The notes: generated by a model not told the origin, from the sequence alone. Positions 1,980-4,384 are shown, counted from the stretch's first letter. The stretch: DNA of 4,384 bases from a virus (IMGVR_UViG_2778261418_000017); one strand, 5' to 3'. Translations and numbers: made by a program.

Positions 1980-3083
1980 TCAAACAATCTGAAAAATATT
2001 TCTTGGATTTGTAATAGGTCGATTGATGGAGAACAACTCACGAATTAAATCTTGACTCAAGCCAGTTTTCATAAGAATGCTTAACCAAGTTGCATCATCC
2101 AGCATGTCAATCGCTTCGGACAGCATACTTGGTTCTTCGGGGCGCAAAAGTTCATCACCAGGTTCAACTCTCGTGTACCCTCTAGAATTAAGATGCATAT
2201 AGCCAGTTCTTGCCTGTTCCTGGGTCAATAGTCCTAATGCACTGGCTCGATAAATACACATTTTAAGGCTAATTTTCCATCTAAGCTTAAATTCAACCAG
2301 AGCACTCCAATCGAATTGCTTACCTCGTATTCGTGGAAATTCTTTAATGAAAGATAGCCTAGGAACCAATAATGCGCTAGAAAAGTGATCAGCTTGTGAT
2401 TCCGTAAGTTTATCACCAGTAGTTATGCCCTCATGCATTACTAAATGCCCTAACTCATGACCTAAATCAGAGCGAAATCTACATATGCTTTTTTTTACAT
2501 TGTTCCTGATAATAACAGGCCTGTTATTGTGAACAGTGAATGCATCAACACGATCATCGACTCCCGTAACATGCGCAACGATTACCCCCAAACTCTCCGC
2601 CAATTTCACCATTGATGATATAGGGCCAAGACCTAGATTCCATGCACGGCGACAATCTTCTGCCACTCGCTCAATATCATTCGGGGTAAGTAATTCAGTT
2701 CCGGGGTGCTCTGGTATGTTGACATCAGGGAATTCGATTTCACCTTCAACAGCAGAAATTATAATATTAAGAATCTCAGCCCTGGCCAAGACACTATTAG
2801 TCAGCGTTTGAGTCCTGGACTTCTTACTCCGAAAATGGCAAACATCGCTTTCCAGAGCATATTTTCGCTCAGTAAATAGAAAATCGGACTTAATCATAAG
2901 AGCTGAGGCTATTAACTCCAAGCATCGCTCTGATGGCCTAAATCCCTTCTCCAATTTGCTAACGAATTGCTTTGTTTTGCCAATTTTTTCGGCCAACTCT
3001 TCACATGAAAGCCCAACAGCCATTCTTGCTAGTTTGAGCTTATCGCCTCGATACTCAGTGAAGTTATTCACCTGATGTTCCAT
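1980..3083 (-). CDS. Fusion protein: N-terminal XRE/Cro-C1-type helix-turn-helix DNA-binding domain plus ImmA/IrrE-family (COG2856, M78-like) zinc metallopeptidase domain with C-terminal extension
   Basis: 367-aa ORF. Residues about 14-70 (LKLARMAVGLSCEELAEKIGKTKQFVSKLEKGFRPSERCLELIASALMIKSDFL) follow the canonical XRE HTH pattern. Residues 209-213 are HELGH (plus 2445-2459), in the context SDLGHELGHLVMHEG typical of ImmA/IrrE peptidases. Shine-Dalgarno-like GAGCAG precedes the ATG at 3083-3081. AT-rich codon usage. Confidence 0.85.
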   Translation of the reverse strand: MEHQVNNFTEYRGDKLKLARMAVGLSCEELAEKIGKTKQFVSKLEKGFRPSERCLELIASALMIKSDFLFTERKYALESDVCHFRSKKSRTQTLTNSVLARAEILNIIISAVEGEIEFPDVNIPEHPGTELLTPNDIERVAEDCRRAWNLGLGPISSMVKLAESLGVIVAHVTGVDDRVDAFTVHNNRPVIIRNNVKKSICRFRSDLGHELGHLVMHEGITTGDKLTESQADHFSSALLVPRLSFIKEFPRIRGKQFDWSALVEFKLRWKISLKMCIYRASALGLLTQEQARTGYMHLNSRGYTRVEPGDELLRPEEPSMLSEAIDMLDDATWLSILMKTGLSQDLIRELFSINRPITNPRNIFQIV

Positions 3084-3879: not shown

Positions 3880-4035
3880 TTACTCCTCAGGTTCGTAAGC
3901 TGTGAAGACAGCGACCTCCGTCTGGCCGGTTCGGATTCGTACCTCGCAGAGGTCTTTCCTCGTTACCAGTGCCGTCACTATGACGGTTAAACAGATGACG
4001 ATAAGGGCGATTAACATCGCCTTTTGCTGCTTCAT
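3880..4035 (-). CDS. hokD: Hok/Gef-family small membrane toxin (type I toxin), HokD/RelF-like
   Basis: 51-aa translation MKQQKAMLIALIVICLTVIVTALVTRKDLCEVRIRTGQTEVAVFTAYEPEE matches E. coli HokD as I recall it: single transmembrane helix, conserved Cys, acidic tail. Strong Shine-Dalgarno AAGGAG lies 9 nt upstream of the ATG at 4035-4033. The ORF track shows an in-frame 19-codon upstream extension (ATG at 4092). Confidence 0.85.
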   Translation of the reverse strand: MKQQKAMLIALIVICLTVIVTALVTRKDLCEVRIRTGQTEVAVFTAYEPEE

Positions 4036-4156
4036 AGCCTGCTTCTCCTTGCCTTTCGGCACGTAAGAGGCTAACCTACATTTGTGAGACATAGATTGGG
4101 CCTCAGATTAATGTTAAGCGTCCTGCAAGACGCGTAATGTTAACTGGGGCTTTTCT

Positions 4157-4193
4157 CTATCTGCCTTTTGGTGTTCATGCCTGAGGCAGATAG
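4157..4193. promoter_or_regulatory. 9-bp perfect inverted repeat (ctatctgcc ... ggcagatag) in the hok upstream leader; candidate RNA structure or operator
   Basis: ctatctgcc at 4157-4165 is the exact reverse complement of ggcagatag at 4185-4193, with a 19-nt spacer. A second overlapping imperfect hairpin is tgaggc-agata-gcctca at 4182-4198. It sits where the hok mRNA 5' regulatory region would be. Confidence 0.3.
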
Positions 4194-4246
4194 CCTCAAG
4201 CACCCGCAGCAATTCTACTTAACTCTCCTTTTCCCGCAAACCGTTT

Positions 4247-4384
4247 TTATCCCCAGCGGCAAATCGAATACACCACCAGCGCCACCGCCATCGCAATTCC
4301 TACCGTTGTGAATGCTTCAGGCCAGGTCATCGTAAAATATCCTCCGCGTTTATCAGTCCGTTTCGCTTCAGGTAGACCATCGCC
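4247..4384 (-). CDS. Partial or small ORF ending in a hydrophobic C-terminus; possible 27-aa membrane peptide (MTWPEAFTTVGIAMAVALVVYSICRWG)
   Basis: It is the only frame open at the window end on the minus strand, with stop TAA at 4249-4247. An internal ATG at 4330-4328 is preceded by a strong Shine-Dalgarno (GGAGGA, 9-nt spacing). The frame stays open upstream to the window edge, so it may be the 3' end of a longer gene. The C-terminus is not that of RelE. Confidence 0.3.
   Translation of the reverse strand, partial: GDGLPEAKRTDKRGGYFTMTWPEAFTTVGIAMAVALVVYSICRWG

Follow-up and report, generated by a model that had tools for sequence, protein, structure and literature searches.

The bacterial single-span proteins AcrZ, KdpF, MgtS, MgrB, PmrR, and CydX bind larger membrane proteins and modulate them. 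Annotation systematically overlooks small membrane proteins, and the open reading frame (ORF) analyzed here belongs among the overlooked ones: PGAP skips it, and it is annotated in none of the 14 phage records that we inspected. The ORF lies in a 4,384-nucleotide stretch of viral DNA (IMGVR_UViG_2778261418_000017; hereafter, the window), and comparison of its copies makes it very probable that the ORF is a genuine phage gene, unannotated for the most part, that encodes a tiny peptide spanning the membrane.

The small ORF and its neighbors in the window

The small ORF occupies positions 4247–4330 on the minus strand (27 codons plus TAA, with the ATG at 4330–4328 and the stop codon at 4249–4247) and encodes MTWPEAFTTVGIAMAVALVVYSICRWG. 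The Shine-Dalgarno sequence, GGAGGA (4345–4340, minus strand), is separated from the ATG by a 9-nt spacer and falls within the last codons of the upstream gene. In these features, the first-pass annotation of this DNA was confirmed; of the three readings that it had offered for the ORF, that of a small membrane protein stood, whereas those of a type I toxin-like peptide and of the C-terminus of a longer gene did not.

The GRAVY of the peptide is 1.09, and its best 19-residue Kyte-Doolittle mean, 2.11, ranks third among the 138 stop-to-stop segments of the window; on this scale, the 27-mer contains a single hydrophobic span, as small membrane proteins do. In the predicted peptide, the N-terminal part is short and acidic (E5), and an arginine (R25) lies at the C-terminal end. 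The predicted membrane layout places a tryptophan at each interface (W3 and W26, separated by 23 residues), with a small-residue face, G11-x-A13-x-A15-x-A17, between them.

A consensus scan detected no promoter-like site for the small ORF on either strand, no Rfam family was found over 4247–4345 (the sok model stops at 4205), and folding gave no RNA structure signal at the ORF on either strand (z = +0.94 and −1.0). Midway through the ORF (4262–4297, minus strand), there is an imperfect run of hexamers (GCGATG GCGGTG GCGCTG GTGGTG), and several variants (P0071, P0080, P0082–P0085, P0087, and P0088) carry in-frame expansions of Ala-Met or Ala-Val dipeptides, with a helix of 29–35 residues. Such expansion variants are recurrent, P0084 being represented by 36 contigs and P0082 by 9. 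Antisense to the small ORF, a plus-strand ORF of 47 aa (4168–4311, MVFMPEADSLKHPQQ...) was considered and rejected: its pN/pS exceeds 1 across the family, it ends differently in relatives, and it is most likely spurious.

The window also holds, in a second frame, the 3′ end of the upstream gene (4327–4384, minus strand), which encodes a hypothetical 'Ea-type' early phage protein of about 114 aa. This frame reads ...AMVYLKRNGLINAEDILR, its translation ending in ...NGLINAEDILR, and its TGA (4329–4327) overlaps the ATG of the small ORF in the arrangement ATGA. The best full-length relative, a prophage of E. coli HH97 (L001; 95% identity over 685 nt), has a 114-aa hypothetical protein annotated in the second frame that terminates exactly at the ATGA overlap; this full-length homolog is the coding sequence WP_000206826 (L001 4714–5058), and it has no match in Pfam or NCBIfam.

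The frame of the small ORF itself reads GDGLPEAKRTDKRGGYFT-M... ahead of and into the start codon and, as the first-pass annotation had stated and translation confirms, is open to the window edge at 4384. This open frame, together with the abundance of short ORFs, 68 of which reach at least 20 aa in the window, is what speaks for a chance ORF or for the C-terminal end of a longer gene with its start outside the window; taken alone, the small ORF does not rise beyond chance, given that number. Relatives contradict such an explanation. In the HH97 prophage, a TAA closes the frame one codon past the equivalent of the window edge, and the codons before it include neither ATG nor GTG nor TTG. Among the nearest relatives, the closing stop codon lies 18–32 codons upstream of the ATG. 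In the first 80 IMG/VR loci, the frame extends 18–36 codons upstream of the ATG and is terminated by a stop codon every time, and no canonical start was found in this extension among the relatives checked (94.5–97.5% identity over the shared stretch). Furthermore, similarity across different contexts starts only at the Shine-Dalgarno sequence and the ATG. Extending the sequence upstream, the check proposed in the first pass and carried out here in relatives, reveals no continuation to a longer conserved ORF, and we reject the longer-gene reading; extrapolating from the relatives, the frame of the window itself would also close beyond 4384. Over its full length, the window has no match above 95% identity in complete E. 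coli genomes or the phage collection, the best matches being 92–95% identical. What raises the small ORF above chance is the comparative evidence, that is, the spread, contexts, selection, integrity, and family described below. With all the conservation evidence for a real gene counting against it, the chance-ORF or longer-gene explanation is extremely improbable.

On the other side of the small ORF lies hok, as had been noted in the first pass. The hok mRNA leader and sok antisense region (RF01794) spans 4030–4205 on the minus strand and matches the full-length Rfam model (121.7 bits, E = 3e-29), and a mok frame of 70 aa (3880–4092, minus strand), which contains hok (3880–4035, 51 aa), matches Pfam HOK_GEF (E = 3e-23); its equivalent is annotated as hokD in relatives. 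Directly past the stop codon of the small ORF, there is a putative hok promoter (TTTGCG-17 nt-TAGAAT; 4212–4240, minus strand), with TAGAAT at 4217–4212 and a weak −35 element at 4240–4235. The placement of this putative promoter follows where the hok mRNA of plasmid R1 begins, and it was not called at the threshold of the consensus scan. The hok/sok cassette begins only past the stop codon of the small ORF, and the two elements are separable. Of 111 copies of this subtype, 59 have a hok gene within 500 nt downstream of the ORF, as do 66 of the 181 loci sampled, and no hok follows the ORF in the BP-4795-type and P1-like/rV5-like contexts inspected. Other 3′ neighbors include an opposite-strand toxin-antitoxin pair of the ParDE type, the DUF4222-xis-int genes, other early genes, and hairpin-like sequences. 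As judged from these neighborhoods, the small ORF is an independent mobile module rather than a component of hok/sok.

The rest of the window, with all genes on the minus strand, begins just downstream of hok with a 216-aa protein that has no Pfam match (3714–3064), followed by a 367-aa protein with an N-terminal HTH_3 and a Peptidase_M78/IrrE domain identified by Pfam (3083–1980); the two genes overlap by 20 nt and form a pair of the XRE-HTH and ImmA/IrrE-like type within the nin region. Next come a 119-aa ORF with no Pfam match (1958–1599), a DUF968/HNHc protein of the YdfU type (1597–539), and RusA (538–173), so that the segment 173–1958 has the ordinary gene order of a lambdoid nin region towards Q.

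A conserved coding unit that is independent of its context

The small ORF is among the more widespread E. coli prophage ORFs and has a sharp signature that reaches many metagenomic phages. A tblastn search with the peptide retrieved 94 phage records at 59–100% identity, and of 5426 complete E. coli genomes searched by blastn with the Shine-Dalgarno sequence plus ORF, 1613 (~30%) carry it, at 3067 places in total, with up to 7 copies per genome and 163 copies on plasmids. The carriers encompass podoviruses with Stx, Sepvirinae being among the carrier groups (933W, ArgO145, POCJ13), lambdoid siphoviruses (BP-4795, VT1-Sakai, PhiR12, PhiR5, PhiR49), P1-like Punavirus (813R1, SJ46), and virulent, rV5-like Vequintavirinae (Av-05, TH18). 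In gene-dense records, the small ORF takes up exactly the roughly 80 nt left unannotated between two annotated genes; this gap is longer in 933W, ArgO145, and VT1-Sakai. Among contigs from one genome per GTDB species, the strict motif occurs only in Escherichia and Shigella, besides two tiny contigs, assigned to Acinetobacter idrijaensis (L096, 369 bp) and Xanthomonas pisi (L100, 431 bp). The former combines a DUF551-type upstream end with a P1-like downstream context, and both are probably contaminating reads rather than evidence of true hosts. Salmonella and E. albertii copies were found in the protein collection, and a check of the K-12 prophages Rac, Qin, and CPS-53, which did not extend to DLP12 and e14, yielded no named homolog.

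The genomic contexts of the small ORF are diverse. In BP-4795, VT1-Sakai, and PhiR12, it is located between a gene of the DUF551/Ea22 type and DUF4222-xis-int, and in the relatives of the window, between the replication gene P and the antiterminator gene Q. Clustering of 300 nt on each side of 181 copies sorted them into 15 clusters of upstream and 16 of downstream context, which combine in at least 38 ways. When copies with different sequence on both sides are paired (405 pairs), identity within the ORF ranges from 0.74 to 1.00 and is 0.78 in the Shine-Dalgarno bin (−12 to −7), dropping to 0.4–0.5 farther upstream and to the random level of 0.25–0.30 from the first base past the stop codon. 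Similarly, the blastn alignments with E. coli matches in the DUF551 context extend precisely from the ATG to the stop (query positions 16–99).

The link to the upstream gene is invariant at the level of architecture. The start codon of the small ORF overlaps the upstream stop codon in all 181 loci, as ATGA in 139 and as TGATG in 42, and in 175 of them, the upstream ORF that ends there spans 50 codons or more. The GGAGG sequence is found at −18 to −4 in 162 of the 181 loci and GAGG in 15 more (177 in total), and codon 2, which specifies Thr, Ser, or Asn, always has A as its first base, which preserves ATGA. This overlap in every locus would be expected if the peptide were a membrane anchor or partner subunit for the upstream protein, produced in fixed proportion to it by coupling, and rare natural in-frame fusions with an Ea22-like protein (P0155, P0156; L311) point the same way. 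However, the upstream genes are unrelated to each other, coding as they do for DUF551 proteins, the 114-aa protein that matches nothing in Pfam, L0139 of 933W, proteins from Av-05 and SJ46, a protein resembling GapR, and even an integrase, and the fusions are very rare, each coming from a single short contig, so that we regard an anchor or partner role as quite unlikely. In the fused copies, of which L311 (156–776) was checked at the DNA level, an Ea22-like coiled-coil gene without a stop codon continues in frame into the peptide (junction ...PPLENKK-MSWPDAF...), giving a product of 143–206 aa with a C-terminal transmembrane helix; these copies retain an internal GGAGAA and ATGA.

Downstream of the ORF, several loci (L013, L027, L045, and L094) have GC-rich, hairpin-like sequence directly past the stop codon, for example, ...aaaaaccccggattgacggtccggg and ...ccagccccgaacgggctgg. 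Such 3′ sequences suggest that the small ORF may often be the last gene of its transcription unit. We also considered a regulatory leader peptide or upstream ORF and rejected this candidate because no fixed gene follows the ORF: its 16 downstream contexts are unrelated and include genes on the opposite strand as well as hairpins resembling terminators.

Selection acts on the encoded peptide. Nei-Gojobori counts over 56 unique 84-nt blocks gave a pN/pS of 0.32 in the sense frame compared with 1.15–1.79 in four of the five other frames, and for divergent pairs, omega was 0.09–0.61 with dS up to about 1.5; a plain tally of variable sites per codon position did not discriminate. The fifth frame, an antisense shadow frame that is mostly open, has a pN/pS of 0.31, and its third positions coincide with those of the sense frame. 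Low pN/pS in an antisense frame that shares third positions is a known shadow effect, and despite this value, we reject the frame as a gene, given that it lacks a conserved start. Because the low pN/pS is shared with the shadow frame, the strand was assigned by the conserved ATG, Shine-Dalgarno sequence, and stop codon, together with hydrophobicity.

The integrity of the ORF is equally well maintained. An ATG start is universal among the 181 copies, and the length is exactly 27 codons in 173 of them and in 116 of the 119 copies in a set ascertained on the first 20 nt only, although many copies are nearly identical, so that these counts of intact ORFs do not amount to independent observations. 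The exceptions in the latter set comprise one in-frame 6-nt deletion, two C-terminal extensions derived from junctions, and one rearranged copy. Disrupted copies do exist, such as that of POCJ13, where TGG is changed to TAG, and a few frameshifted variants are present in the protein collection. Conservation of the start, stop, and length under purifying selection is what a real coding unit for a small membrane protein displays. The first-pass reading of the ORF as a small membrane protein is retained, as a prediction, with start, Shine-Dalgarno sequence, and length kept across contexts under that selection.

The same data bear on the possibility that the block acts as a nucleic acid or through translation itself, either as a recombination 'linker' or as a coupled ORF that prevents polarity. 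Mosaic junctions fall exactly at the ends of the ORF, some junction variants lose the stop codon and gain unrelated C-terminal tails, and in several contexts hairpin-like sequence follows right after the ORF, all of which would fit a role in cis. Yet the substitutions are mostly synonymous (pN/pS 0.32, dS up to 1.5) and the replacements are conservative, W3, P4, A6, and G11 are near-invariant in 126 clusters (50% identity) despite the loss of nucleotide identity, and the signal of RNA structure is absent. We consider this possibility highly improbable. Comparative analysis of the DNA and its translation demonstrates a conserved coding unit under selection, its coupling architecture, and its independence of context.

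Database searches and the wider family

The peptide from E. coli returned nothing above threshold in Pfam, NCBIfam, PHROGs, PADLOC, or the PDB sequences. Only weak matches were obtained, to phrog_4612 (E = 0.019), KdpF, DUF883_C, and T4SS_pilin, along with PTR2 among the Pfam matches at E ≤ 10, and the first four were treated as noise from a hydrophobic segment. Searching for the peptide strings likewise gave no match, either in the searchable literature or in the supplementary files of the Sakai Ribo-seq paper and the Enterobacteriaceae microproteome preprint. In the searches made, the small ORF is essentially uncharacterized, having no curated family, phage-record annotation, or literature match.

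A protein collection of 5.8 billion sequences contains many copies, some of which, from E. coli, are named 'bacteriophage protein', 'prophage protein', or 'hypothetical protein'. Others (P0012, P0035, P0044, P0054, and more) bear the NCBI label 'DUF551 domain-containing protein, partial', which is wrong. Kinship with DUF551 was considered and rejected: P0001 and P0016 fall in 90%-identity clusters whose DUF551 representatives do not contain the 27-mer. The clustering and naming of the 27-mer as DUF551 looks like an artifact of overlapping gene ends and read-through gene calls, which hides the small protein.

A profile search of 1.84 billion representative proteins, with a family cut-off of E ≤ 0.001 and clusters defined at 50% identity, identified 162 further clusters, almost all of 25–60 aa, that share the motif W-P-E-A-F-x-x-V-G-x-A-x-A-x-A. 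For 126 clusters, the consensus is M-[STN]-W-P-E-A-F-x-x-V-G-[VI]-A-F-A-[VI]-A-...-[WY]-A-...-[KR]-[YW]-G, with a median length of 28 residues from Met to the end. The conservation values are 1.00 for W3, 0.93 for P4, 0.98 for A6, 0.88 for F7, 0.87 for V10, 0.99 for G11, 0.73 for A13, 0.81 for A15, 0.88 for A17, and 0.69 for K/R25, where some columns are partly imposed, the extraction pattern having demanded W3 and limited positions 4, 6, 10, and 11 to a few residues. The WPEAF motif near the N-terminus and the small residues of G11-x-A13-x-A15-x-A17 are the best-conserved parts of the peptide. Across the family, hydrophobic residues are replaced by hydrophobic ones. Distant members (L181, L183/L184) are likewise encoded among clustered early genes of phages, and their start codons overlap the stop codon of the preceding gene, as in E. 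coli. Ten distant members had no Pfam or PHROG match above threshold, and tblastn with one of them (P0158) found no match in the phage collection.

More tentatively, with a confidence that stops just short of even, we propose that the E. coli ORF represents a large, uncurated family of phage 'WPEAF' micro-proteins of 25–35 residues, comprising at least 162 clusters and present in temperate as well as virulent phages, that would have a specific, conserved membrane target or form a defined oligomer and serve a common early-infection function. If this is true, the WPEAF family would be a common, so far unrecognized function of early infection that about 30% of E. coli genomes carry via prophages. 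A new family model would be justified so that the gene becomes annotated, and the 27-residue peptide is an easily synthesized target for the study of early phage effects on the host inner membrane.

Proposed mode of action and comparison with known systems

Overall, the best explanation, which we consider probable though well short of certain, is that the small ORF encodes a translationally coupled, single-span inner-membrane peptide that acts via helix-helix packing. From the sequence features and their conservation, we infer that the peptide is translated, inserted into the membrane in a defined topology, and active through packing of its helix. The gene would be an accessory one, situated in the early 'ea/nin' regions of E. 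coli phages and transcribed with the early operons (pL 'ea' or pR 'nin') rather than from a promoter of its own. Because its ATG overlaps the upstream stop codon (ATGA or TGATG) and GGAGG lies within the last codons of the upstream gene, translation would be coupled, that is, performed by ribosomes terminating on the upstream gene. The product would then insert in the inner membrane as a single helix, with the N-terminus out (E5) and the C-terminus in (R25), as predicted by the positive-inside rule, and with Trp3 and Trp26 at the two membrane interfaces. The near-invariant G11 and the small residues at positions 13, 15, and 17 would form small-xxx-small helix-packing faces, and the partner would be another transmembrane helix, most likely from a membrane protein of the host or the phage, the activity of which the peptide would modulate. 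It is these faces that favor a modulator that binds a partner, the helix-packing step being a proposal drawn solely from this sequence motif. The modulator reading, which we favor, likens the peptide to AcrZ, KdpF, MgtS, and PmrR in mechanism, not in sequence. Vequintavirinae are strictly lytic, and the presence of the small ORF in these phages speaks for a function in the course of infection rather than in maintaining a prophage.

The same small residues could support a different activity, namely, that of a self-assembling small pore or membrane perturber, akin to a viroporin or a type I toxin, which would depolarize the inner membrane early in infection for host shut-off or superinfection exclusion. 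The ring-packing motifs of ATP-synthase c subunits, GxGxGxG and AxAxAxA, resemble the pattern in the peptide, where residues 11, 13, 15, and 17 place small faces on two sides of the helix and so permit packing into a ring; the peptide is tiny and very hydrophobic, and half of the copies of this subtype adjoin hok. Nevertheless, the locus has no antisense RNA, promoter of its own, or structured leader, and the peptide has no match to HOK_GEF, PADLOC, or any toxin family. That intact copies persist in 30% of E. coli genomes, with as many as 7 in one genome, argues against leaky toxicity, and the ORF lies outside the lysis cassette, with holins encoded elsewhere in the same loci. A pore or toxin is thus an unlikely, although not negligible, alternative to the partner-binding modulator.

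Comparison with described systems delimits the place of the peptide. It shares with type I toxins (Hok/Gef, Ibs, ShoB, TisB, and Ldr) its very small size and hydrophobicity and, in the window, adjoins hok/sok. In contrast to these toxins, it lacks a cis-antisense RNA, a promoter of its own, and a long structured 5′ UTR, its start and stop overlap is embedded in an operon, and it is carried by virulent phages, too, many of its contexts lacking hok. Membership in this class, which the first-pass annotation had entertained, is unsupported, there being neither a HOK_GEF or PADLOC match nor an own promoter, RNA-family, or structure signal. With holins and pinholins, the peptide has in common that it is a small phage membrane protein, as predicted, with conserved small residues resembling a glycine zipper, but it differs in being a single helix of 27 residues without a charged C-terminal tail. 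A holin or pinholin assignment was rejected, the small ORF residing in the ea or nin early region outside the lysis cassette, with the genes for holin, endolysin, and spanin elsewhere in the same loci. At one distant locus (L184), Phage_holin_3_1, lysozyme, and Phage_lysis genes are found about 3 kb downstream of the small ORF, after Q.

The neighborhood and the mosaic swapping of modules are those of the lambdoid exo-xis ('ea') and nin genes (Ea22, DUF551 proteins, Ea8.5, and orf60a/61/63). The products of those genes are soluble, however, whereas the peptide is a bare predicted transmembrane helix, and the small ORF is not among the exo-xis proteins reviewed in PMC8614690, a review in which we came across no reference to a transmembrane or small ORF.

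The closest counterparts are the small single-span modulators. Like AcrZ, KdpF, MgtS, MgrB, PmrR, and CydX, the peptide is shorter than 50 aa and has a single hydrophobic helix with aromatic residues at the interfaces and a small-xxx-small packing motif, and it was routinely missed by annotation. Unlike AcrZ, KdpF, MgtS, and the rest of this class, to which it has no sequence kinship, it is borne by phages and coupled inside early operons; membership in the KdpF family itself (TIGR02115) was rejected, with a score of 14.7 bits against a cut-off of 26.85. By analogy with these proteins, the peptide most probably works as the small single-span modulators do, and it adds a member to the small single-span membrane proteins without founding a category of its own.
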